Source of the DNA: a phage
Length of the DNA: 64,000 nucleotides
Sequence record: MZ956761.1
Direction: 5' to 3' (one strand)
Under the pieces are notes generated by a model. That model was not told the DNA's origin. It did no database searches and saw nothing but the letters and a program-made list of their open reading frames with translations. Both the position numbers and the translations under genes were made by a program. This document shows positions 2,322 to 25,834 of this stretch, piece by piece; positions within the stretch are counted from its first letter, which is position 1; each line of letters begins with the position of its first letter.

Positions 2322-2669
2322 ATGAATTTTAATTATTACCCTATTCTATTAGAAAAAGACGCGAAACAACCAAAATGGCAGGGTCCTCAGTTTATTAAAG
2401 GTGTCTATCAATTAGTAGTTCCTAAAGACAAAATTTATAGTAGTTGTTTCACTGAATCCGCTTGCAGTATTTTTGGTAATAGTTCTCCATATTGGAATTT
2501 TGATATAAAGCTTGACAGAAATATCGATATTTGGTTGAAAGCTATGGATATTGGCAATATCACGTTTGATGAGAATAATTATCATATTATTGGTCGCTTT
2601 TCCAAGCGTGGTAAAGAATTATATTTTACGCCTGAAATTGAAAGAAAATTTGATGCTAAACCGTATTGA
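2322..2669 (+). CDS. Hypothetical protein (115 aa) inserted between frd and td
   Basis: Intact ORF with ATG; no recognisable motif; frd and td overlap directly in T4 as I recall. Confidence 0.6.
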   Translation: MNFNYYPILLEKDAKQPKWQGPQFIKGVYQLVVPKDKIYSSCFTESACSIFGNSSPYWNFDIKLDRNIDIWLKAMDIGNITFDENNYHIIGRFSKRGKELYFTPEIERKFDAKPY

Positions 2670-2713
2670 TTATTAGCTTCATAAAATGTATTATAATTTA
2701 TATAAGGTACTAA

Positions 2714-3574
2714 ATGAAACAATACCAAGATTTAATTAAAGACATTTTTGAAAACGGCTATGAAACCGATGACCGAACAGGCACAGGAACAATTGCTTTG
2801 TTCGGTACTAAATTACGCTGGGATTTAACTAAAGGTTTTCCTGCAGTAACGACTAAGAAGCTCGCCTGGAATGCATGTATTTCTGAATTATTGTGGTTCT
2901 TATCAGGAAGTACTAACGTAAATGATTTACGTCAACGTACTCATGGATCTTTAATTGCAGGAAAAACAATTTGGGATGAAAACTACGAAAATCAGGCCAA
3001 AGACTTAGGTTATCATAGCGGTGAACTTGGTCCAATTTACGGAAAACAGTGGCGTGATTTTGGTGGTGTAGATCAAATTGTAGAAGTTGTTAATCGTATT
3101 AAAACATTTCCCAATGATAGACGTCAAATTGTGTCGGCATGGAATCCAGCTGAACTCAAGCAGATGGCATTACCTCCTTGTCATATGTTCTATCAGTTTA
3201 ATGTGCGTAACGGATACCTTGACCTCCAATGGTATCAACGTTCGGTAGATGTTTTCCTCGGTCTTCCATTTAACATCGCGAGTTATGCTGCTCTTTTACA
3301 TATTGTTGCTGACATGTGTGAACTAGTTCCGGGCGATTTGGTATTCTCGGGTGGTAATACACACATTTATTCTAACCATATTGAGCAATGCAAAGAGATA
3401 TTAAATAGAACTCCTATGGATCTATGCAAACTCAGTATTAATTGGCCTAATGGATTCAGTCAATGCGATACTGAAACTCAAATGTATTGGTTAACTGAAT
3501 ATATGACAGCACGGGATTTCGTTCTCAAAGATTATCAGTCCCACGGTGTTTTGAAAGGAAAGATGGCGGTGTAA
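2714..3574 (+). CDS. td: Thymidylate synthase, uninterrupted (no group I intron)
   Basis: 286 aa continuous ORF, MKQYQDLIKDIFENGYETDDRTGTGT...PPCH..; same length as spliced T4 Td. Confidence 0.95.
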   Translation: MKQYQDLIKDIFENGYETDDRTGTGTIALFGTKLRWDLTKGFPAVTTKKLAWNACISELLWFLSGSTNVNDLRQRTHGSLIAGKTIWDENYENQAKDLGYHSGELGPIYGKQWRDFGGVDQIVEVVNRIKTFPNDRRQIVSAWNPAELKQMALPPCHMFYQFNVRNGYLDLQWYQRSVDVFLGLPFNIASYAALLHIVADMCELVPGDLVFSGGNTHIYSNHIEQCKEILNRTPMDLCKLSINWPNGFSQCDTETQMYWLTEYMTARDFVLKDYQSHGVLKGKMAV

Positions 3575-3597
3575 TTTTAATTTAATTGAGAGGATAT

Positions 3598-3861
3598 ATG
3601 ATTTTACGATTTAAGGATACTTCTGGTGTCGTTCTTTTTACACTTCCTAATCCAAGCGAGTTAGAAGTTCCAGGACCAGAACAGCCTATTATCATTTATG
3701 GTAAAAAGTATTATACTCATAAAATGACTCGTGAGTATTTTGATAATAAAATTTCCACAGTTAAAACTTCTTCTGATTGTTATTATGATATTACTGTTTT
3801 AACGGAACAACAATATGACGAATTATTACCGCGCGGGCCGTCTATGCCGGGTAGTGAATAA
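3598..3861 (+). CDS. Hypothetical protein (about 87 aa)
   Basis: ATG at 3598 preceded by GAGAGGA; the track ORF begins at an upstream TTG. Confidence 0.5.
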
Positions 3862-4141
3862 ATATAAATCCGACTTTGATGTTAATATTCACCGCGGTAC
3901 ATTTTGGGGAAATTACGTCGGTAAAGATGCTGGCAGCCGGGAGGCTGCCATTGAATTATTCAAAAAAGATTTTATACGTCGAATTAAATCCGGAGAAATA
4001 ACTAAAGCACATTTAGAGCCTTTACGTGGAATGAGGCTAGGATGCACATGTAAACCAAAGCCGTGTCATGGTGATATAATAGCTCATATAGTTAACCGAT
4101 TGTTTAAAGACGATTTTCAAGTTGAGGACTTATGCAATTAA
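3815..4141 (+). CDS. Small conserved protein with Cys/His cluster (DUF4326-like motif [13 protein letters not shown])
   Basis: 108 aa; IHRG..WGN..CxCxPxPCHGD pattern resembles a phage-associated domain of unknown function (recalled, not searched). Confidence 0.55.
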
Positions 4142-6396
4142 TTAATGTTATCAAAAGTAGTGGTGTTTCTCAGAGCTTTGACCCGCAAAAAATTATTAAA
4201 GTTTTATCTTGGGCAGCTGAAGGAACATCTGTAGATCCTTATGAATTATATGAAAATATTAAATCATATCTCCGTGATGGAATGACAACTGATGACATTC
4301 AGACTATTGTCATTAAGGCTGCTGCGAATTCTATTTCAGTTGAAGAGCCTGATTACCAATATGTAGCTGCACGCTGTTTAATGTTCGCTCTTCGTAAACA
4401 TGTTTACGGGCAGTATGAACCACGTTCATTTATTGACCATATTTCTTACTGTGTAAATGAAGGTAAATATGACCCTGAACTGTTGTCAAAATATTCTGCC
4501 GAAGAAATTACATTTTTAGAATCAAAAATTAAGCATGAGCGGGATATGGAATTTACTTATTCCGGGGCGATGCAATTAAAAGAAAAATATCTAGTTAAAG
4601 ATAAAACCACTGGTCAAATTTATGAAACTCCACAGTTTGCATTTATGACTATTGGAATGGCATTGCATCAAGATGAACCTGTTGATAGATTAAAACACGT
4701 TATCCGTTTTTATGAAGCAGTATCTACTCGACAGATTTCACTGCCAACTCCTATTATGGCTGGTTGCCGTACTCCAACTCGGCAGTTTAGTTCATGCGTT
4801 GTTATTGAAGCAGGTGATTCATTAAAGTCTATCAATAAGGCTTCTGCTTCAATTGTTGAATATATCTCCAAACGCGCTGGAATTGGTATTAACGTTGGTA
4901 TGATTCGTGCCGAAGGTTCTAAGATTGGCACAGGTGAAGTACGCCATACTGGTGTTATTCCTTTTTGGAAACATTTTCAGACTGCAGTTAAATCATGCTC
5001 ACAGGGTGGAATTCGTGGCGGCGCTGCTACTGCTTATTATCCTATTTGGCATTTGGAAGTTGAAAATCTTCTCGTTTTGAAAAATAACAAAGGCGTAGAA
5101 GAAAACCGTATCCGTCATATGGATTATGGCGTTCAACTGAATGACCTAATGATGGAACGATTCGGAAAGAATGATTACATTACTTTGTTCAGTCCGCATG
5201 AAATGGGTGGCGAACTTTATTATTCTTATTTTAAAGACCAAGACCGTTTCCGTGAATTATACGAAGCCGCAGAAAAAGACCCTAATATTCGTAAAAAGCG
5301 TATTAAAGCCCGTGAACTGTTTGAATTGCTCATGACTGAACGCTCAGGAACAGCAAGGATTTATGTACAGTTCATAGATAATACGAATAACTATACTCCG
5401 TTTATTCGTGAAAAGGCACCTATTCGTCAGAGCAACTTGTGCTGTGAAATTGCTATTCCAACAAATGATGTTAATAGCCCTGATGCCGAAATTGGATTGT
5501 GTACGTTATCTGCATTTGTGTTAGATAACTTCGATTGGCAAGACCAAGATAAAATTAATGAATTGGCAGAAGTCCAAGTTCGTGCTCTTGATAATCTTTT
5601 GGACTACCAAGGATATCCAGTTCCTGAAGCAGAAAAAGCTAAAAAGCGTCGAAATCTTGGTGTAGGTGTTACTAACTATGCAGCTTGGCTGGCAAGTAAT
5701 TTTGCTTCTTATGAAGATGCTAACGATTTAACACATGAACTATTTGAGAGATTGCAGTATGGACTCATTAAAGCATCCATTAAGCTCGCCAAAGAAAAAG
5801 GACCTTGCGAATATTATTCAGACACTCGTTGGTCTCGAGGCGAATTACCTATCGACTGGTACAATAAAAAGATTGACCAAATCGCAGCTCCAAAATACGT
5901 TTGTGACTGGTCGTCGCTGCGGGAAGACCTTAAGCTCTTTGGCATCCGTAATAGCACATTATCAGCACTTATGCCATGTGAGTCATCTTCCCAAGTTTCT
6001 AACAGTACAAACGGTATCGAGCCTCCACGTGGACCAGTCTCTGTTAAAGAATCAAAAGAGGGTTCCTTTAATCAAGTCGTGCCCAATATTGAGCATAACA
6101 TAGACCTCTATGATTATACGTGGAAATTAGCTAAGAAAGGTAATAAACCTTATCTTACGCAAGTAGCTATTATGTTGAAATGGGTATGTCAATCAGCTTC
6201 AGCGAATACATATTATGACCCGCAGATTTTTCCAAAAGGAAAGGTTCCAATGTCAATAATGATTGATGACCTTTTATATTTTTGGTATTTTGGCGGAAAA
6301 AATTTCTATTATCATAATACACGCGACGGTTCTGGTACTGATGATTATGAAATAGAAACTCCAAAAGCTGAAGATTGTTCATCCTGTAAATTATGA
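4132..6396 (+). CDS. nrdA: Ribonucleotide reductase large subunit (aerobic class I)
   Basis: 754 aa; ATP-cone N-terminus and catalytic-core motifs; length as T4 NrdA. Confidence 0.95.
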   Translation: MQLINVIKSSGVSQSFDPQKIIKVLSWAAEGTSVDPYELYENIKSYLRDGMTTDDIQTIVIKAAANSISVEEPDYQYVAARCLMFALRKHVYGQYEPRSFIDHISYCVNEGKYDPELLSKYSAEEITFLESKIKHERDMEFTYSGAMQLKEKYLVKDKTTGQIYETPQFAFMTIGMALHQDEPVDRLKHVIRFYEAVSTRQISLPTPIMAGCRTPTRQFSSCVVIEAGDSLKSINKASASIVEYISKRAGIGINVGMIRAEGSKIGTGEVRHTGVIPFWKHFQTAVKSCSQGGIRGGAATAYYPIWHLEVENLLVLKNNKGVEENRIRHMDYGVQLNDLMMERFGKNDYITLFSPHEMGGELYYSYFKDQDRFRELYEAAEKDPNIRKKRIKARELFELLMTERSGTARIYVQFIDNTNNYTPFIREKAPIRQSNLCCEIAIPTNDVNSPDAEIGLCTLSAFVLDNFDWQDQDKINELAEVQVRALDNLLDYQGYPVPEAEKAKKRRNLGVGVTNYAAWLASNFASYEDANDLTHELFERLQYGLIKASIKLAKEKGPCEYYSDTRWSRGELPIDWYNKKIDQIAAPKYVCDWSSLREDLKLFGIRNSTLSALMPCESSSQVSNSTNGIEPPRGPVSVKESKEGSFNQVVPNIEHNIDLYDYTWKLAKKGNKPYLTQVAIMLKWVCQSASANTYYDPQIFPKGKVPMSIMIDDLLYFWYFGGKNFYYHNTRDGSGTDDYEIETPKAEDCSSCKL

Positions 6397-18368: not shown

Positions 18369-18637
18369 TGTTTGTTGTTCACACTATTTATGAAAATGAA
18401 GGTAATACTACTCGTGATTACGGTCACGTAAATCAATTTTTTAGATGCAATCCAGAATTTCGAGCTCAAAAAGACGAACGAATTTTTAAAAAATGTGTAG
18501 AGCAAGGTTTCATTTACGTCAAGCATTGGATGCAAGGAAATAAAGTTAGAACCACGTACCATAGGTCTTTGACTGAGCTTAATGATGAATTGATTTATAA
18601 TAGAGCTGTAAACCAAACTCTAAAGGATGAACAATGA
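18368..18637 (+). CDS. 30.1: Hypothetical protein (89 aa)
   Basis: ATG ORF, ATGA overlaps with neighbours; symbol by synteny. Confidence 0.5.
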   Translation: MFVVHTIYENEGNTTRDYGHVNQFFRCNPEFRAQKDERIFKKCVEQGFIYVKHWMQGNKVRTTYHRSLTELNDELIYNRAVNQTLKDEQ

Positions 18638-20097
18638 TTCTTAAAATTCTGAACGAAATAGCATCTATTGGTTCAACTAAGCAGAAGCAAGCAATTCTTG
18701 AAAAGAATAAAGATAATGAATTGCTTAAACGAGTATATCGTCTGACTTATTCTCGTGGGTTGCAGTATTATATCAAGAAATGGCCTAAATCTGGTATTGC
18801 TACCCAGAGTTTTGGAATGTTGACTCTTACCGATATGCTTGACTTCATTGAATTTACATTAGCTACTCGGAAATTGACCGGAAATGCGGCAATTGAGGAA
18901 TTAGTAGGTTATATTACTGACGGTAAAAAAGATGATGTTGAAGTTTTGCGTCGAGTGATGATGCGAGACCTTGAATGTGGTGCTTCAGTATCTATTGCAA
19001 ACAAAGTTTGGCCAGGTTTAATTCCTGAACAACCTCAAATGCTCGCAAGTTCTTATGATGAAAAAGGCATTAGTAAGAATATCAAATTTCCAGCCTTTGC
19101 ACAATTAAAAGCAGATGGAGCTCGGTGTTTTGCTGAAGTCCGAGGTGATGAATTAGATGATGTTCGTCTTTTATCACGAGCTGGTAATGAATATCTAGGA
19201 TTAGATCTTCTTAAGGAAGAGTTAATCAAAATGACTGCTGAAGCCCGCCAGATTCATCCAGAAGGTGTGTTAATCGATGGCGAATTGGTATACCATGAGC
19301 AAGTTAAAAAGGAACCAGAAGGCCTAGATTTTCTTTTTGATGCTTATCCTGAAATTAGTAAAGCTAAAGAATTCGCCGAAGTAGCGGAATCTCGTACTAC
19401 TTCTAATGGAATCGCTAATAAATCTTTAAAGGGAACTATTTCAGAAAAAGAAGCTCAATGCATGAAGTTTCAGGTCTGGGATTATGTTCCGTTGGTAGAA
19501 ATATACGGTCTTCCAGCATTTCGTTTAAAATATGATGTACGTTTTTCTAAATTAGAACAAATGACATCAGGATATGATAAAGTAATTTTAATTGAAAACC
19601 AAGTAGTAAATAACCTAGATGAAGCTAAGGTAATTTATAAAAAGTATATTGACCAAGGTCTTGAAGGTATTATTCTCAAAAATATCGATGGATTATGGGA
19701 AAATGCTCGTTCAAAAAATCTCTATAAATTTAAAGAAGTAATTGATGTTGATTTAAAAATTGTAGGAATTTATCCTCACCGTAAAGACCCTACTAAAGCA
19801 GGTGGATTTATTCTTGAGTCAGAGTGTGGAAAAATTAAGGTAAATGCTGGTTCAGGCTTAAAAGATAAAGCCGGCGTAAAATCGCATGAACTTGACCGTA
19901 CTCGCATTATGGAAAACCAAAATTATTATATTGGAAAAATTCTAGAGTGCGAATGCAACGGTTGGTTAAAATCTGATGGCCGCACTGATTACGTTAAATT
20001 ATTTCTTCCGATTGCGATTCGTTTGCGTGAAGATAAAACTAAAGCTAATACATTCGAAGATGTATTTGGTGATTTTCATGAGGTAACTGGTTTATGA
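18634..20097 (+). CDS. 30: ATP-dependent DNA ligase
   Basis: 487 aa; adenylation motif KADGAR (FAQLKADGARCFAEV); length as T4 ligase. Confidence 0.95.
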   Translation: MILKILNEIASIGSTKQKQAILEKNKDNELLKRVYRLTYSRGLQYYIKKWPKSGIATQSFGMLTLTDMLDFIEFTLATRKLTGNAAIEELVGYITDGKKDDVEVLRRVMMRDLECGASVSIANKVWPGLIPEQPQMLASSYDEKGISKNIKFPAFAQLKADGARCFAEVRGDELDDVRLLSRAGNEYLGLDLLKEELIKMTAEARQIHPEGVLIDGELVYHEQVKKEPEGLDFLFDAYPEISKAKEFAEVAESRTTSNGIANKSLKGTISEKEAQCMKFQVWDYVPLVEIYGLPAFRLKYDVRFSKLEQMTSGYDKVILIENQVVNNLDEAKVIYKKYIDQGLEGIILKNIDGLWENARSKNLYKFKEVIDVDLKIVGIYPHRKDPTKAGGFILESECGKIKVNAGSGLKDKAGVKSHELDRTRIMENQNYYIGKILECECNGWLKSDGRTDYVKLFLPIAIRLREDKTKANTFEDVFGDFHEVTGL

Positions 20098-20282
20098 AAG
20101 CTTACTTAGAAACAATTGTTGTGGCTCAAAAAGAAGGCGGAGATGTTTCTACTTCTGTATCACAAATCATGATTGAATTTATAGATGCATATGCTTATAA
20201 TAAATTCACAGAAACTTTTGATGCTTATGAAAAAGGTCCAAAGTTTGAAATATATCGTACTCTCTTACCAATAGATTATTAA
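20094..20282 (+). CDS. Hypothetical protein (62 aa)
   Basis: ATG overlapping ligase stop; followed by terminator. Confidence 0.5.
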   Translation: MKAYLETIVVAQKEGGDVSTSVSQIMIEFIDAYAYNKFTETFDAYEKGPKFEIYRTLLPIDY

Positions 20283-20303
20283 AGGCCTTCGGGCCTTTAA
20301 TTT
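20281..20303 (+). terminator. Rho-independent terminator
   Basis: AAAGGCC-TTCG-GGCCTTT followed by AATTTT. Confidence 0.65.
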
Positions 20304-20311
20304 TATAAATA
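20304..20311 (+). promoter_or_regulatory. Late promoter TATAAATA upstream of first alt gene
   Basis: Exact TATAAATA about 20 nt upstream of the alt ATG. Confidence 0.6.
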
Positions 20312-20331
20312 GAATAAACACTAGAGAGGAT

Positions 20332-22428
20332 ATGATGGAACTCATTACAGAATTATTTGACGAAGATACTACTCTTCCGATTACAAACTTAAACCCAAAG
20401 AAGAAAATACCACAAATTTTTTCAGTTCATGTTGATGATGCAATTGAACAACCAGGCTTTCGTTTATGTACCTATACATCTGGAGGTGATACTAATCGCG
20501 ATTTAAAGATGGGCGATAAAATGATGCATATTGTTCCTTTTACATTAACTGCTAAAGGTTCAATTGCTAAATTAAAAGGTCTCGGTCCAAGCCCAATTAA
20601 CTACATCAATTCAGTTTTTACCGTTGCAATGCAGACGATGCGTCAGTATAAAATTGATGCCTGTATGCTCCGTATTCTTAAGTCTAAAACTGCTGGTCAA
20701 GCTCGACAAATTCAAGTTATTGCTGATAGACTTATCCGTAGTCGTTCAGGTGGCAGATACGTCCTTCTTAAGGAACTCTGGGATTACGATAAAAAGTATG
20801 CATATATTCTTATACATCGCAAAAATGTATCACTAGAAGACATTCCAGGAGTTCCGGAAATTAGTACCGAGCTCTTTACTAAAGTTGAATCGAAGGTCGG
20901 TGATGTTTATATCAATAAAGATACCGGAGCTCAAGTAACTAAAAATGAGGCAATTGCAGCATCTATTGCGCAAGAAAACGATAAACGTTCTGACCAAGCT
21001 GTAATCGTTAAAGTTAAAATTTCCCGTAGAGCAATTGCACAAAGTCAATCATTAGAATCTTCTAGATTTGAAAGTGAATTATTCCAGAAGTATGAATCTA
21101 CCGCAGCTAATTTCAATAAACCTGCTACCGCTCCTTTAATTCCCGAAGCAGAAGAAATGAAACTTGGAATTAATTCAATAGCTTCTAAAACTAAGGCAGC
21201 AAAAATCATTGCCGAAGGAACTGCAGATGAACTTCACTATGATTATAAATTCTTTTCAAAAAGTGAGGTTAATGAAGTTTCTGAAAAGATAAAAGATGTA
21301 ATTCTTAATGCGATTAAAAATGAACCAACTACTTCAATAAAATGTTTAGAGAAATACGCAGCAGCTGTTAATCAACTCTTTGAAGAATATAAAGATAATT
21401 GGCTTGATAAACATAATAAAACTCGTAAAGGGCAGCCAGATGAAGTCTGGGAAGAAATGACTAAAAATTCCTGGAACGCAGCAAAAACTAAATTCCTCAA
21501 AAGAATGATTTATAGTTTTTCTGGAATTGGTGCAGGTCCAATGATTGATATTACTATTGCCCGTGATGGTTCTAAATATACTCCATCACAAAAGCGCGGC
21601 ATTAGAGAGTATTGTGGTTCAGGATATACAGACATTAATAATCTTCTTTTAGGTCGTTACAATCCAGAACGGTATGAAATAATGAGTGAAAAAGAAATTG
21701 AATCTGCTATAAATAATTTAGATTCAGCTTTTGAAAATGGCGACCGTATACCGGAAGGCATTACAGTTTATCGTGCTCAAAGTATGACTGCTCCTATATA
21801 CGAAGCACTAGTTAAAAATAAAGTGTTCTATTTCAGAAATTTTGTATCTACTTCTTTAACTCCTATCATTTTTGGACGTTTTGGAATTACACATGCTGGT
21901 ATTGGTCTTTTAGAACCAGAAGCTCGTAACGAATTAACAGTTGATAAAAATGAAGAAGGAATAACTATTAATCCAAACGAAATAAGAGCGTATAAAGAAA
22001 ATCCTGAATACGTTAAAGTTCAAATAGGATGGGCAATTGATGGAGCTCATAAAGTTAATGTTGTATATCCAGGAAGTCTCGGAATAGCAACAGAAGCTGA
22101 AGTTATTCTACCGCGCGGATTGATGGTCAAAGTTAATAAAATAACTGATGCTTCTAATAATGACGGAACAACATCTAATAATACAAAACTCATTCAAGCT
22201 GAAGTTATGACCACAGAAGAACTCACCGAATCGGTAATCTATGACGGAGACCGTTTAATGGAAACCGGCGAAGTAGTTGCAATGACTGGTGATATTGAAA
22301 TAGAAGATAGAGTTGACTTTGCATCATTTGTTTCATCAAATGTTAAACAGAAAGTAGAATCATCTCTTGGAATTATTGCGTCTTGCATAGATATTACAAA
22401 CATGCCTTACAAGTTCGTTCAAGGATAA
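20332..22428 (+). CDS. alt: Alt-family NAD-protein ADP-ribosyltransferase (packaged internal head protein), paralog 1
   Basis: 698 aa; N-terminus MELITELFDE...; C-terminal domain carries R (VYRAQ), STS (FVSTSL) and E-x-E (TEAEVILPRG) motifs. Confidence 0.85.
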   Translation: MMELITELFDEDTTLPITNLNPKKKIPQIFSVHVDDAIEQPGFRLCTYTSGGDTNRDLKMGDKMMHIVPFTLTAKGSIAKLKGLGPSPINYINSVFTVAMQTMRQYKIDACMLRILKSKTAGQARQIQVIADRLIRSRSGGRYVLLKELWDYDKKYAYILIHRKNVSLEDIPGVPEISTELFTKVESKVGDVYINKDTGAQVTKNEAIAASIAQENDKRSDQAVIVKVKISRRAIAQSQSLESSRFESELFQKYESTAANFNKPATAPLIPEAEEMKLGINSIASKTKAAKIIAEGTADELHYDYKFFSKSEVNEVSEKIKDVILNAIKNEPTTSIKCLEKYAAAVNQLFEEYKDNWLDKHNKTRKGQPDEVWEEMTKNSWNAAKTKFLKRMIYSFSGIGAGPMIDITIARDGSKYTPSQKRGIREYCGSGYTDINNLLLGRYNPERYEIMSEKEIESAINNLDSAFENGDRIPEGITVYRAQSMTAPIYEALVKNKVFYFRNFVSTSLTPIIFGRFGITHAGIGLLEPEARNELTVDKNEEGITINPNEIRAYKENPEYVKVQIGWAIDGAHKVNVVYPGSLGIATEAEVILPRGLMVKVNKITDASNNDGTTSNNTKLIQAEVMTTEELTESVIYDGDRLMETGEVVAMTGDIEIEDRVDFASFVSSNVKQKVESSLGIIASCIDITNMPYKFVQG

Positions 22429-22431
22429 ATC

Positions 22432-24489
22432 ATGGAACTTATTACAGAATTATTTGACGGCGCTTCGGCGCCGGTTGTTAACTTAAATCCTAAGCATAAA
22501 ATACCTCAAATTTTTGCTATTCAAGCCGGTGAAGAAAGTGTTCTCCCTGGATTTAGATTTTGTACATACACCTCTGGTGGTGATACAAATAAAAACGTTA
22601 AGCCAGGCGATAAAATGATGCATATCGTAATGATAGGTGTCAATGAGAAACTATCATTAGTTAAGCTTAAAAACTTGGGTGGAAATCCAATTGGTGTCAT
22701 TAATGCCGTTTTTGATACTGCTCTTCAAACAATGAAACAGTATAAAATCGACGCATGCCTATTCCGCGTACTAAAAAGTAAAACAAATGGCGCAGCTCGT
22801 CAAATGCAAGTTATTGCTGACCGTTTAGTACGTACTAAGGGAGCAGGTCGATATGTTCTTTTAAAGGAAATCTGGGACTATGATAAAAAATATGCATATA
22901 TTATGGTTTACCGTAAAAATGCCAATTTAGAAGACATTCCAGGTGTACCTCCTATTTCAACTGAGTTATTCACAAAAGTTGAATCAAAGGTTGGTGATGT
23001 TTATGTAGATGTTAAAACAGGTAATGCTGTTCCTAAAGCTGTTGCTGTTGCTGCTTCTATTGCTTTAGAAAATGATAAGCGCACGGATCAAGCTGTTATT
23101 CAGAAAACTAAAATTAGTCGTCGATTAGCAGCACAAGCTCAATATTCTACTGTTGATGCTTCACTTCAGGGTGATAGCTTCGCCGCTAAGAAATATCAAG
23201 AGTTTGAATCTAAAGTTCCGGTATATAAAGCAGAAGGACCAATGAACTCTGGCGTTATTCAGATTGGTTCCAACTTCGGCAAAGGAGCTATCGGTGGTAT
23301 GAGAAGTGCTTCTCGTTTTAAATCTAACGATTATGAACTAGAAAGCTTTCGAAATCATATTGCATTGGCCCATGCACGTTTACGTGATCCGTCTATCAGA
23401 CTGCAGAGCGATATAACACATCAAGGTTCTCAAGAATATTTAAAGAATAAAGAATTTTTTGATTATAAAACCGATAAAATTTTGAGCGATCTCGCTGACA
23501 TTAATATTTCTAATAGCTTTGATGTTATTAAGAAAATTATCAATGATTTAGTTAAAGGTTCTAAAGCCACGCCAGACGAAAAGGTAGCTATTATTCAATT
23601 TGTCATGAATAGCATTTATAAATTGATTAATGAATCTGCTGCCCAGGCATATGAATACGCAAGCACCGAAGTAACTCCAAAAGGACTGACTCAGGCTGAA
23701 TCTGATGTAATTGAAGATTATTGTGCAGATTCATATGTTGAAATGAACTCGTTCCTTTTGGGTAAACCAGATTCTACCCGTGAAGAATACATGGAACGAG
23801 CTATTAAACACATCGAGACGTTGGATTCTGCATTCGCCAAAGGATCAGTTCTTCCTCCAGGAACTACGCTTTATCGTGGACAAGAAGTTACTTTTAAAAC
23901 TTTACGCCATAATATTGAAAATAAAATGTTCTATTTCAAGAACTTCGTATCAACATCGCTTAAACCAAATATCTTCGGTGAGCATGGTAAAAACTATATG
24001 GCTCTAGATGATTCTGGCGCAGTATTTTCTGGCGAAGGAGAAGGTTCTGTTGATGCAGAAGATTTGATGCATATGGGTAGTCATTCTACATATGCCAATG
24101 AAGATGCTGAAACTAGCGTAGGTATGGTAATTAAAGGGGCTGAGCGAATCAAAGTTATCGTTCCAGGTCATTTATCAGGATTTCCATCAGAAGCTGAAGT
24201 TATTCTACCACGTGGAATTTTGTTGAAGATTAATAAAGTAAGCACGTACATGATGAAAGAAACTGCTTATAACAAGTATCTAATCGAAGGTACAATCGTT
24301 CCTCCTTCTGAACAATTAGAAGAATCAGTATATGATGGAGACCATCTAATGGAAACTGGTGAAGTTCGTCCAATGGCTGGATTTAATCAATTCCTTGTAG
24401 AAGAATCAAAAGAAGAGGAAAACGAAGTTTCTCAAATCTTGGCTTCTTTGGTTAACATCAACGGAATGTCTAAAAAGTTCAAGATGTAG
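22432..24489 (+). CDS. Alt-family ADP-ribosyltransferase, paralog 2
   Basis: 685 aa; N-terminal about 230 aa closely similar to paralog 1, divergent middle region, R (LYRGQ), STS (FVSTSL) and E-x-E (SEAEVILPRG) motifs retained. Confidence 0.85.
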   Translation: MELITELFDGASAPVVNLNPKHKIPQIFAIQAGEESVLPGFRFCTYTSGGDTNKNVKPGDKMMHIVMIGVNEKLSLVKLKNLGGNPIGVINAVFDTALQTMKQYKIDACLFRVLKSKTNGAARQMQVIADRLVRTKGAGRYVLLKEIWDYDKKYAYIMVYRKNANLEDIPGVPPISTELFTKVESKVGDVYVDVKTGNAVPKAVAVAASIALENDKRTDQAVIQKTKISRRLAAQAQYSTVDASLQGDSFAAKKYQEFESKVPVYKAEGPMNSGVIQIGSNFGKGAIGGMRSASRFKSNDYELESFRNHIALAHARLRDPSIRLQSDITHQGSQEYLKNKEFFDYKTDKILSDLADINISNSFDVIKKIINDLVKGSKATPDEKVAIIQFVMNSIYKLINESAAQAYEYASTEVTPKGLTQAESDVIEDYCADSYVEMNSFLLGKPDSTREEYMERAIKHIETLDSAFAKGSVLPPGTTLYRGQEVTFKTLRHNIENKMFYFKNFVSTSLKPNIFGEHGKNYMALDDSGAVFSGEGEGSVDAEDLMHMGSHSTYANEDAETSVGMVIKGAERIKVIVPGHLSGFPSEAEVILPRGILLKINKVSTYMMKETAYNKYLIEGTIVPPSEQLEESVYDGDHLMETGEVRPMAGFNQFLVEESKEEENEVSQILASLVNINGMSKKFKM

Positions 24490-24542
24490 TTTACAAGTCC
24501 CTCGTGTTGTGTTATAGTAGTCTTACTGACATAACATGAGGA
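24489..24542 (+). promoter_or_regulatory. Early promoter/5'UTR cassette, copy 2 (54 bp, identical to 9236-9289)
   Basis: Exact 54-nt identity with the cassette upstream of alc; begins at the last base of the alt paralog 2 stop codon. Confidence 0.7.
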
Positions 24543-24549
24543 ACACAAA

Positions 24550-24840
24550 ATGAAATCTTCTTTACGCTTTTTAGGTCAAGAACTTGTAGTTGAAGGCGTT
24601 ATTCCTGCTGATAACGCTTTTAATGAAGCAGTTTACGATGAATTTATCAAAATTTTTGGAACAGATAAAAAGTTCGGAATTTTTCCTTCTGAAAATTTTT
24701 CAAAGCCAGAACAGACTGAAAGCATTTTCCAAGGTGTAGTAACAGGTAAATTTGAGTCAGAAGCTCCGGTAAAAATTGAAGTTTATATTGAAGACAGTTT
24801 AGTTGCTTCAGTTGCTGCTTTTATTTCATTCCGTAAATAA
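24550..24840 (+). CDS. Hypothetical protein (96 aa)
   Basis: ATG with GAGGA RBS supplied by the repeated cassette; followed by bidirectional terminator. Confidence 0.55.
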   Translation: MKSSLRFLGQELVVEGVIPADNAFNEAVYDEFIKIFGTDKKFGIFPSENFSKPEQTESIFQGVVTGKFESEAPVKIEVYIEDSLVASVAAFISFRK

Positions 24841-24846
24841 AAATAT

Positions 24847-24864
24847 GGGGACCGAAAGGTCCCC
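24847..24864. terminator. Bidirectional terminator hairpin between convergent genes
   Basis: GGGGACC-GAAA-GGTCCCC; A/T-rich flanks on both sides. Confidence 0.65.
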
Positions 24865-24868
24865 ATTG

Positions 24869-25834
24869 TTATATTGCTCCTAATATTTTACTCTGCGAAT
24901 TAACAATCCCTGTCATAGTATTAATGTTTGAAATGCTTCCTGCAGTTCCACCTAATCTACTGAGTCGTGAAAGCGAATTAGATAGTCCAGTAACACCTCC
25001 ACTATTTCCGAGAACGCTTTGAATACCATTTATAGCAGCAGATTCAAGCCATTCAAGCGCAGCTTGCCTATCAACCGCTCCAGCCTGCATCACTCTGTAC
25101 GCAAAAGTAACATCAAATGTAGTTATTTGGTTATCTCCATCATATGATAACTCAGGAGCGCTCACTGATATTGGAATGCATCCGGTGAACATCACCGCAG
25201 TATGAGGCAATCCATTACGAGAATGAAGATTAACCTGAATATCTGCCTCGACATCTTGCGGCAAAGCACGTAATCCAGTTACTGGGTCTTGAACAGAGTT
25301 AACCCAGTCTTGCATTGCACGATAGTTACAAGCTTCTGAGTCCATTCTAAATGAAATAACCAAAGGGTCTAATTCTCTCCCAGTTATACGAATATTAGGA
25401 GAATTATAGTTCCAGTCAGTTTCATATGATAATCTATTCTCTGGCATTTTTACAGAGTATATCATCAATCCAGATGAGTTATATGCCATGTTAAAGAAGT
25501 CAATTAAATATGTACCAACTGTAAATGAGCCCAATAAACTTTGAACTGTACGTTGACTCATGGCACCAATAAGATATTTACTAACCCCTGATTTTCTTAT
25601 CAGTTTTTGTGTGCCAGCTGTAATTAGCGTGGTAATTCCCTGATTAATATCACCTTGAGTTAATCCTAGCCAATCTGAATTTAGGCCCAAGTTATTATAA
25701 GAAAAGTTGCTAATTGAACTTATCAACGAAGAGCTTTTAGTTGATGGAGTTGTTGCAAAAACGCAGCTAAACATATTATTACGTTGGAAATCTGCGTTTA
25801 TTGCTTGATTATTAAATTCCTCTAAAGAATACAT
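24869..25834 (-). CDS. 54: Baseplate tail tube initiator
   Basis: 321 aa; position and length as T4 gp54; TAATG overlap with gene 48. Confidence 0.9.
   Translation of the reverse strand: MYSLEEFNNQAINADFQRNNMFSCVFATTPSTKSSSLISSISNFSYNNLGLNSDWLGLTQGDINQGITTLITAGTQKLIRKSGVSKYLIGAMSQRTVQSLLGSFTVGTYLIDFFNMAYNSSGLMIYSVKMPENRLSYETDWNYNSPNIRITGRELDPLVISFRMDSEACNYRAMQDWVNSVQDPVTGLRALPQDVEADIQVNLHSRNGLPHTAVMFTGCIPISVSAPELSYDGDNQITTFDVTFAYRVMQAGAVDRQAALEWLESAAINGIQSVLGNSGGVTGLSNSLSRLSRLGGTAGSISNINTMTGIVNSQSKILGAI

Follow-up and report, generated by a model that had tools for sequence, protein, structure and literature searches.

Alt of phage T4 is a prohead-core protein present in about 40 copies per head. 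It is injected with the DNA and ADP-ribosylates Arg265 of the RNA polymerase alpha subunit, along with other host proteins (PMC2988021). Cleavages of T4 Alt by the gp21 protease were mapped by mass spectrometry to ITE-6 and LTE-619, the latter of which removes 63 C-terminal residues (PMC5694885), and ADP-ribosylation was lost in a mutant of its E-x-E glutamate published as 'E577A' (PMC11404850). Duplications of alt were described in 2006: Aeromonas phage 44RR has a full-length duplicate (ORF187c), and partial ones occur in RB49 and 44RR (Nolan 2006, PMC1524935). Here we describe a tandem pair of alt genes in a 64,000-nt stretch of phage DNA (sequence record MZ956761.1; hereafter the window). 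The 4.9 kb between 20000 and 24900 were 100% identical to Escherichia phage ADUt (OQ466432), a Tequatrovirus from hospital wastewater. Both genes, called copy 1 and copy 2 below, are probably functional and their products probably packaged.

Two full-length alt genes in tandem

The mechanical open reading frames (ORFs) of the pair were 20332..22428 (698 aa) and 22432..24489 (685 aa), located on one strand and separated by 3 nt. The initial annotation gave the same two lengths. That of copy 2 stood, but copy 1 likely starts one ATG later, at 20335, because GAGAGG lies 5 nt before this ATG and the same start is used in the records of T4, T2, T6 and ADUt. From this ATG the protein begins MELITE..., as T4 Alt does. 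The two genes are as follows.

20335..22428, + strand: copy 1, alt of the T2/T6-type allele; 697 aa, with an N-terminal domain (1-~238), a variable cassette (~240-615; helical region and ADP-ribosyltransferase (ART) domain) and a C-terminal tail
22432..24489, + strand: copy 2, second Alt paralogue; 685 aa, with an N-terminal alpha/beta domain (~12-226), a helical region (~240-470) and an ART domain (~470-625)

Profile searches bore out the initial reading of two tandem full-length Alt-family genes with intact catalytic motifs. Pfam PF03496 (ADPrib_exo_Tox; cut-off 23.4 bits) matched copy 1 with 128.7 bits and copy 2 with 72.3 bits. PHROG 802, 'Alt-like RNA polymerase ADP-ribosyltransferase', matched both end to end (copy 1, 1-696, 908 bits; copy 2, 1-685, 851 bits), and both were homologous to T4 Alt over their full length, including the N-terminal domain. 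PF26846 (Tevenvirinae_ADPRT) and PF03496 were also precomputed for the copy-2 cluster and for the chimeras described below, and Pfam searches with the isolated N-terminal, middle and tail segments gave nothing over noise.

The two proteins were 41-44% identical (BLASTP, 41% over the full length, E = 4e-158), a similarity that far exceeds chance. By region, identity was 68% in the N-terminal domain (1-238), 19% in the middle (239-410), 36% in the ART domain (411-622) and 40% in the C-terminal tail. The strong divergence of the middle regions had been noticed before, together with N-terminal segments said to be near-identical; the latter held for the first 9 residues and not for the domain as a whole. 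Copy 1 was 98-99% identical to T2 and T6 Alt and 72% identical to T4 Alt, and copy 2 was 44% identical to T4 Alt overall. A pairwise alignment and a comparison with T4 Alt and the T-even genomes had been proposed in the initial annotation; these comparisons yielded diverged paralogues, the pair in T2 and T6, and T4 without copy 2.

Both proteins carry the R / S-T-S / E-x-E residues of arginine-specific R-S-E transferases. In copy 1 these are R480, S505-T-S507 and E587/E589, encoded within YRAQ (21769-21780), FVSTSL (21841-21858) and EAEVILPRG (22093-22119). The corresponding residues of copy 2 are R482, S507-T-S509 and E587/E589, within YRGQ (23872-23883), FVSTSL (23944-23961) and EAEVILPRG (24190-24216). 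R482, S507, S509, E587 and E589 (copy-2 numbering) were invariant across a 23-sequence family alignment. The family profile aligned 'lyR' with the catalytic Arg of C3cer and BECa, two solved toxins, and 'E-A-E-viLPRG' with Q-x-E-LLLPR of C3 and E-Y-E of BECa. It left the S-T-S of the Alt family unaligned to that of the toxins, and this assignment comes from motif identity and invariance. Zero matches were obtained with copy 2 by phmmer against the PDB sequences, so that the family profile was needed to reach the toxins. The E-x-E motif of RefSeq T4 Alt is E574-M-E576, and the published number in E577A seems to be off by one residue.

In the AlphaFold model of copy 2, the predicted local distance difference test score (pLDDT) averaged 74. 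Most values in the helical and ART regions were 75-90, and the score dipped to 55-65 in an inserted loop (~511-560). In Foldseek searches this model matched Vis, C3, Certhrax, CDTa and VIP2 with probability 1.00, E values of 1e-7 to 1e-4 and target-normalised TM-scores of 0.55-0.68. The catalytic domain of the copy 2 model thus has the C3/VIP2-like R-S-E fold of the solved members.

Selection on copy 2 was estimated by the Nei-Gojobori method among six Tequatrovirus orthologues (ADUt, ECO07P5, G4498, T6, T2 and SfPhi01). Synonymous divergence (dS) was 0.12-0.29, and the ratio of nonsynonymous to synonymous divergence (dN/dS) was 0.02-0.06. Copy 1 gave 0.03-0.08 within its allele class, so selection on copy 2 is as strong. 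The 685-codon ORF was uninterrupted, with no sign of a broken frame or relaxed selection. Copy 2 is under strong purifying selection and is therefore no dead duplicate.

Megablast with the two-gene region found 549 phage records, 345 of which had a single place covering at least 80% of the query, so that both genes are present in at least 345, and tblastn with copy 2 found 397 records at 95% identity or more. T6 (AP018814) and T2 (PV958097) have both full-length genes with the same 3-nt spacer. Many GenBank/RefSeq records, ADUt included, name both genes 'Alt-like RNA polymerase ADP-ribosyltransferase' or 'NAD(+)--arginine ADP-ribosyltransferase'. The two-gene arrangement is thus the majority state in Tequatrovirus and is already known from public annotation, as the duplication of alt is from the 2006 description. 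Outside this genus, records of Aeromonas phages and JSE/Cognac-type coliphages each gave two places with tblastn. In Dhakavirus IME341 a tandem pair was found with the same 3-nt spacing; copy 1 was the nearest match of its first gene (67%) and copy 2 that of its second (50%). The pair is old, since an orthologous tandem pair with the same spacing occurs in IME341. For a study of a second Alt, the searchable literature yielded only Nolan 2006, and nothing on Alt paralogues was found in PMC9958956, PMC12373910, PMC7917993 or PMC2993671. As far as that literature shows, copy 2 is functionally unstudied.

Both copies lie between DNA ligase/alt.1 and alt.-3/gene 54, behind an exact match to TATAAATA, the T4 late-promoter motif. 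The signals of the pair are the following.

20281..20303, + strand: GC-rich hairpin and T-rich tail (AAAGGCCTTCGGGCCTTTAATTTT) downstream of alt.1, seen on inspection of the sequence; a terminator-like boundary upstream of the alt operon
20304..20311, + strand: T4-type late promoter consensus TATAAATA, exact match, 24 nt upstream of the likely copy-1 ATG at 20335
20324..20329, + strand: Shine-Dalgarno sequence GAGAGG of copy 1, 5 nt before ATG 20335 and only 2 nt before ATG 20332
22421..22425, + strand: Shine-Dalgarno sequence AAGGA of copy 2, within the last two codons of copy 1 and 6 nt upstream of the ATG

A terminator is annotated at the equivalent place of the hairpin (20281-20303) in phage G4498, and a simple terminator scanner did not list the hairpin of the window. 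A conserved terminator upstream of alt has been described (Nolan 2006, PMC1524935). The copy-1 stop codon (TAA, 22426-22428) is followed by the copy-2 ATG at 22432, and no terminator-like site was found between the two genes on the + strand. Late co-transcription of copy 1 and copy 2 would be the simplest reading of this layout. Exact matches to TATAAATA numbered 18 in the window, against 8.7 expected. One of them lies inside copy 1 (21708-21715), ~720 nt upstream of copy 2, and may be an internal late promoter or a chance match.

The T4 remnant, chimeric genes and cassette alleles

Reference T4 carries two small ORFs after alt, alt.-1 and alt.-2 (61 and 67 aa), labelled in the record as 'an old duplication of the first part of gene alt'. 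Their DNA, a ~360-bp remnant (1066-1451 in the T4 stretch compared, L001), was ~97% identical to the first 348 nt of copy 2 and then jumped to its last ~20 nt and the intergenic region. In the window, three features correspond to the ends of the T4 deletion and to a frameshift.

22771..22779, + strand: first of two 9-bp direct repeats CTAAAAAGT, marking the left boundary of the T4 deletion
24470..24478, + strand: right copy of CTAAAAAGT, right end of the T4 deletion
22591..22595, + strand: A5 run in copy 2; one A is lost in T4, giving the frameshift that parts alt.-1 from alt.-2

The distance between the two CTAAAAAGT copies is 1,699 bp, and removing this interval in silico reproduced T4 save for point differences and one 1-nt gap (~97% identity). 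PHROGs 23015 (alt.-1) and 15247 (alt.-2) scored higher on copy 2 than on copy 1. The T4-type junction was contiguous in 91 of 500 matching records, wild isolates included. The other records break exactly at the junction, as would be expected with an intact copy 2, and the junction is absent from the window. ECML-134 was rejected as a junction match, being an unrelated short match elsewhere in its genome. An origin of alt.-1/alt.-2 from a full-length second alt gene by a microhomology deletion plus a 1-bp frameshift fits these alignments better than a partial duplication. It had been left open whether reference T4 carries both copies; it does not, and copy 2 is present there only as the alt.-1/alt.-2 remnant. 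The possibility had also been raised that the pair is simply the standard T4 arrangement. The pair is standard in Tequatrovirus, T2 and T6 included, but it is not the arrangement of T4 itself.

Yersinia phage PST has one alt gene (686 aa; 2460-4520 in the PST stretch, L008). At the nucleotide level it was 98% identical to copy 1 up to about residue 95 and then 95-100% identical to copy 2. Four metagenomic proteins (P0003, P0004, P0005 and P0007) were clean chimeras of a copy-1 N-terminus and a copy-2 body, and further chimera coordinates are 4001-6055 in L010 and 4001-6061 in both L011 and L012. At least four different crossover points were seen, and each fell within the N-terminal domain. A locus with a single alt gene was confirmed for PST, P0003 and P0005, the latter two with the order ligase / alt.1 / single alt / alt.-3 / gene 54. 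Assembly collapse was rejected as a source of the chimeras: long identical stretches are missing between the paralogues, and the same arrangement is found in the complete genome of PST. The chimeras indicate that unequal crossing-over between the tandem paralogues has recurred. They also show that the two N-terminal domains are interchangeable, and that a copy-1 N-terminus can carry a copy-2 body as the sole Alt of a phage.

A second kind of exchange was found between copy 1 and T4 Alt. The N-terminal domains were 99.6% identical (dS 0.13) and the C-terminal tails 94%, whereas over residues ~240-615 (window 21050-22180) identity fell to 32% in the middle and 65% in the ART domain, with saturated dS. 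Nucleotide identity dropped likewise from 94-100% to 41-75% in the cassette and then rose again. The near-identical ends, the diverged residues ~240-615 and the saturated dS argue that the whole middle-plus-ART cassette was exchanged. The T2/T6-type allele was found in ~318 records (at least 90% identity) and the T4-type in 215 records (60-80%). The alt locus is modular: the genus has two alt alleles that differ by the middle-plus-ART cassette, and copy 2 makes three cassettes. They occur as T2-type plus copy 2 (ADUt, T2, T6), T4-type plus copy 2 (G4498, SfPhi01), T4-type plus remnant (T4) and chimera (PST). Because of the exchanged cassette and the 44% identity, respectively, the list of T4 Alt targets is not simply transferable to copy 1 or copy 2. 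The biochemistry of T4 Alt may not apply to the T2/T6-type Alt. No discussion was found in the searchable literature of alt.-1/alt.-2 as a deletion remnant, of two alt cassette alleles or of recurrent fusion by unequal crossover.

Packaging, targets and alternative explanations

The shared N-terminal region had been expected to carry a gp21 processing site, and at the level of motifs the ITE-6 of T4 Alt is present in both copies. As candidate gp21 sites, copy 1 has ITE-6 and LTE-632, and copy 2 has ITE-6 and LEE-631 at the aligned place, so that motifs are present at both termini of both proteins. All 23 homologues have M-E-x-[L/I]-x-E at the N-terminus, [L/I]-x-E being residues 4-6, and [L/I/M]-x-E-S before Y-D-G-D at the C-terminal site. 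Cleavage at these sites would give predicted mature masses of 70.2 kDa (copy 1) and 69.1 kDa (copy 2), and it would release the following propeptides.

22231..22425, + strand: 65-aa C-terminal propeptide predicted for copy 1, following ...EELTE|S and aligned with the LTE-619 cleavage of T4 Alt
24325..24486, + strand: 54-aa C-terminal propeptide predicted for copy 2, following ...SEQLEE|S, of low confidence in the model and probably disordered

Between the two copies, the N-terminal domains share 68% identity despite a saturated dS of 1.5, and their longest shared exact run is 22 nt. This similarity was kept by constraint, since dS is 1.5 and no exact nucleotide run longer than 22 nt is shared; recent gene conversion was rejected on the same two observations. 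Modelled alone, the N-terminal domain of copy 2 is an alpha/beta domain with a pLDDT of 85, and solved structures gave weak GNAT-like matches only. Among predicted viral structures, the N-terminal fold (window 22432-23151) recurs at the N-termini of large uncharacterised proteins. Its carriers are Dickeya/Shigella/Erwinia phages related to Ackermannviridae, Vibrio phages and the Agrobacterium jumbo phage Atu_ph07. For some of these proteins the annotation lists a zeta-toxin, deaminase or ParB domain; the matches had E values of 1e-7 to 1e-4 and TM-scores, normalised to the query, of about 0.5. As a lead only, the N-terminal domain may serve as a head-delivery module that is reused with variable effectors.

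Within the copy-2 lineage, the middle region was 46% identical between Tequatrovirus and Dhakavirus, the same as the N-terminal domain (46%). Because of this equal conservation across the genus split, the middle region is no mere fast-evolving filler. An aromatic residue was located 4-5 positions before E-x-E, in the ADP-ribosylating toxin turn-turn (ARTT) loop, in every copy-2-lineage sequence (SGFPSEAE, SEYPEEAE, SNYPEEAE, SAFPDECE) and in none of the copy-1 lineage (SLAPSNEME, L-GIATEAE, SPQSQEME). In C3-like and iota toxins, the aromatic residue of ARTT turn 1 contributes to substrate recognition. Given 19% identity in the middle regions and a systematic difference in the ARTT loops, it is plausible that copy 1 and copy 2 have different substrate spectra. 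The paralogous phage ARTs ModA and ModB, which differ in target spectra, provide a precedent (PMC5512222, PMC2988021). The initial annotation had proposed two enzymes with probably different targets. This agrees with the loops and middle regions, which do not identify a target or point specifically to a defence protein; a copy 2 that hits a defence protein or acts against host defences would be speculation.

Taken together, these data suggest the following course of events. The promoter at 20304 would drive a late operon of alt and, 3 nt on, the second alt paralogue, and the locus would encode two arginine-specific mono-ADP-ribosyltransferases of the Alt family. Each protein has three parts. 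The N-terminal domain is conserved and opens with a predicted propeptide of 6 residues, the last three being ITE. A variable cassette follows, in which a helical region precedes the C3/VIP2-like R-S-E catalytic domain, and a predicted acidic C-terminal propeptide lies after the [L/I]-x-E-S site. By analogy with T4 Alt, both would enter the prohead core and be trimmed at both ends by the gp21 protease. They would then be kept in the head, injected with the DNA and ADP-ribosylate arginines of host proteins before phage gene expression. With cassettes so different, their substrate sets would probably be different and perhaps overlapping. We put the probability of this reading as a whole, two packaged, processed and injected Alt enzymes from a late operon with probably distinct substrate sets, at about 60%.

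Several points weigh against it. T4 and close relatives, represented by the records with a contiguous deletion junction (91 of 500 matching), live without copy 2. N-terminally truncated copy-2 ORF calls occur in databases (P0006, M62; P0008, M158; P0010, M271; 36, 7 and 12 member sequences, respectively), and they suggest either recurrent slippage or homopolymer sequencing errors. From the T4 state and these calls, a phage can do without copy 2, at least on laboratory hosts. The motif [L/I]-x-E is short and occurs 7 times in copy 2, and no virion proteome of a two-copy phage was found in the searchable literature. The presence of copy 2 in the virion, its cleavage by gp21, its injection and its activity are what we infer from T4 Alt, as is late expression from the operon layout. 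The divergence of targets is likewise deduced from sequence divergence and a rule borrowed from toxins. The P0006 start lies just downstream of the A5 run at which T4 is frameshifted (window 22591-22615).

Other explanations of the pair were considered. Copy 2 might be a redundant duplicate, both proteins being packaged and directed at the same targets (RNA polymerase alpha Arg265 and others) with copy 2 as dose or backup. The two copies do share their architecture, catalytic residues and operon, T4 lives with one copy, and PST-type phages live with a single chimera bearing only the copy-2 cassette, so one cassette can replace the pair. However, the duplication predates the split of Tequatrovirus and Dhakavirus and each copy is still orthologous to its counterpart, while the middle regions and ARTT loops have diverged as described above. 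A dN/dS of 0.08 or less within each lineage is also unexpected for a purely redundant gene over such a time span, and we consider simple redundancy unlikely. It is also conceivable that copy 2 is active but unpackaged, being made late and acting in the producing cell or occurring as a minor or non-virion protein, somewhat like ModA/ModB. No proteomic trace of copy 2 in virions was found in the searchable literature, and the head copy numbers of T4 come from a phage without copy 2. Against this stand the conservation of the N-terminal domain and both gp21 motifs, and the viable phages in which a chimera of copy-1 N-terminus and copy-2 body is the sole Alt. Moreover, copy 2 is located in a late operon adjoining baseplate genes, whereas ModA and ModB are early products (PMC2988021). 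An unpackaged copy 2 is distinctly improbable on this evidence.

That copy 2 is decaying or unexpressed, or is a structural protein of the core without catalytic function, would accord with its reduction to a remnant in T4 and with the few truncated database entries. It is hard to reconcile with an intact ORF in about 400 phage records, a dN/dS of 0.02-0.06, the invariant R / S-T-S / E-x-E and the confidently modelled ART fold, and it is already so strongly disfavoured that we give it hardly any weight. The favoured reading of two injected enzymes can be carried further, to an 'Alt2' that is injected as a further effector and has host targets of its own, these being defined by its helical region and aromatic ARTT loop and possibly comprising defence or stress-response proteins, at an alt locus built as a delivery module with swappable cassettes. 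This extension is tentative, and we regard it as doubtful at present.

If it were true, Alt2 would have been missed by fifty years of T4 genetics because T4 lost copy 2 through a 1.7-kb deletion. That T2, T6 and most wild Tequatroviruses carry it would explain part of their differing behaviour on hosts with particular defence systems. The three diverged cassettes, the recurrent unequal crossovers and the N-terminal fold on other effectors in unrelated phages would then describe a delivery module with exchangeable effectors. What is known of injected phage ADP-ribosyltransferases comes almost entirely from T4, which has one of two deeply diverged alt alleles and a deleted second paralogue, while most natural Tequatroviruses, as well as T2 and T6, probably inject two enzymes. 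This bears on host takeover, on phage therapy candidates, which are mostly Tequatroviruses of the two-copy type, and on cargo delivery via the Alt N-terminal module.

Neighbouring genes and comparison with known systems

The gene order is gene 30, alt.1, Alt copy 1, Alt copy 2 and alt.-3, with genes 54, 48 and 29 on the opposite strand. This is the order of T4, the second alt gene excepted. The neighbouring features are as follows.

18634-20097: gene 30 (DNA ligase)
20094-20282: alt.1, 62 aa product
24490..24518, + strand: sigma-70 / T4-early-like promoter TTTACA-17-TATAGT with an extended-10 TG, before alt.-3; consensus match only
24550..24840, + strand: alt.-3, the downstream neighbour; 96 aa, DUF5498
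24845..24866, no strand assigned: terminator-like hairpin, bidirectional, which separates alt.-3 from gene 54 and closes the rightward unit; found by the scanner, with a terminator annotated at the same place in G4498

The alt.1 gene overlaps the ligase stop by 4 nt, and its product matched Pfam PF24647 ('Phage_blade') over the full length (E 7.5e-29). In T4, mutations that extend the C-terminus of Alt.-3 block CmdA degradation and lead to escape from the CmdTAC defence system (PMC11618068). The alt.-3 of the window is the normal 96-aa form, with the early-type promoter match (24490-24518) in front. No RNA family was found by an Rfam search of 19500-25500, and NCBIfam and PADLOC searches gave zero matches.

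The alt duplications of 44RR and RB49 resemble the pair of the window in being tandem diverged paralogues that adjoin alt in a T4-like genome, but these phages belong to different genera. At the same place T4 holds a wrecked remnant, whereas the window holds the intact ancestral form. C3 exoenzymes, the Vis toxin and the binary-toxin components (CDTa, Ia, BECa, VIP2) have the same catalytic fold as Alt, with R and Q/E-x-E aligned. Their sequence identity is only 14-20%, however, and as exotoxins of bacteria they have delivery domains of a different kind; a long insertion between S-T-S and the ARTT loop also sets the Alt proteins apart. T4 ModA and ModB belong to the same Alt/VIP2 R-S-E clade as the Alt copies, but they are small early proteins which lack the Alt N-terminal domain and are not packaged. 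The closest described relative is T4 Alt (NP_049811, 682 aa), which has the same locus, three-part architecture, R-S-E residues, ITE-6 and [L]-x-E-S motifs and late promoter as the copies of the window.

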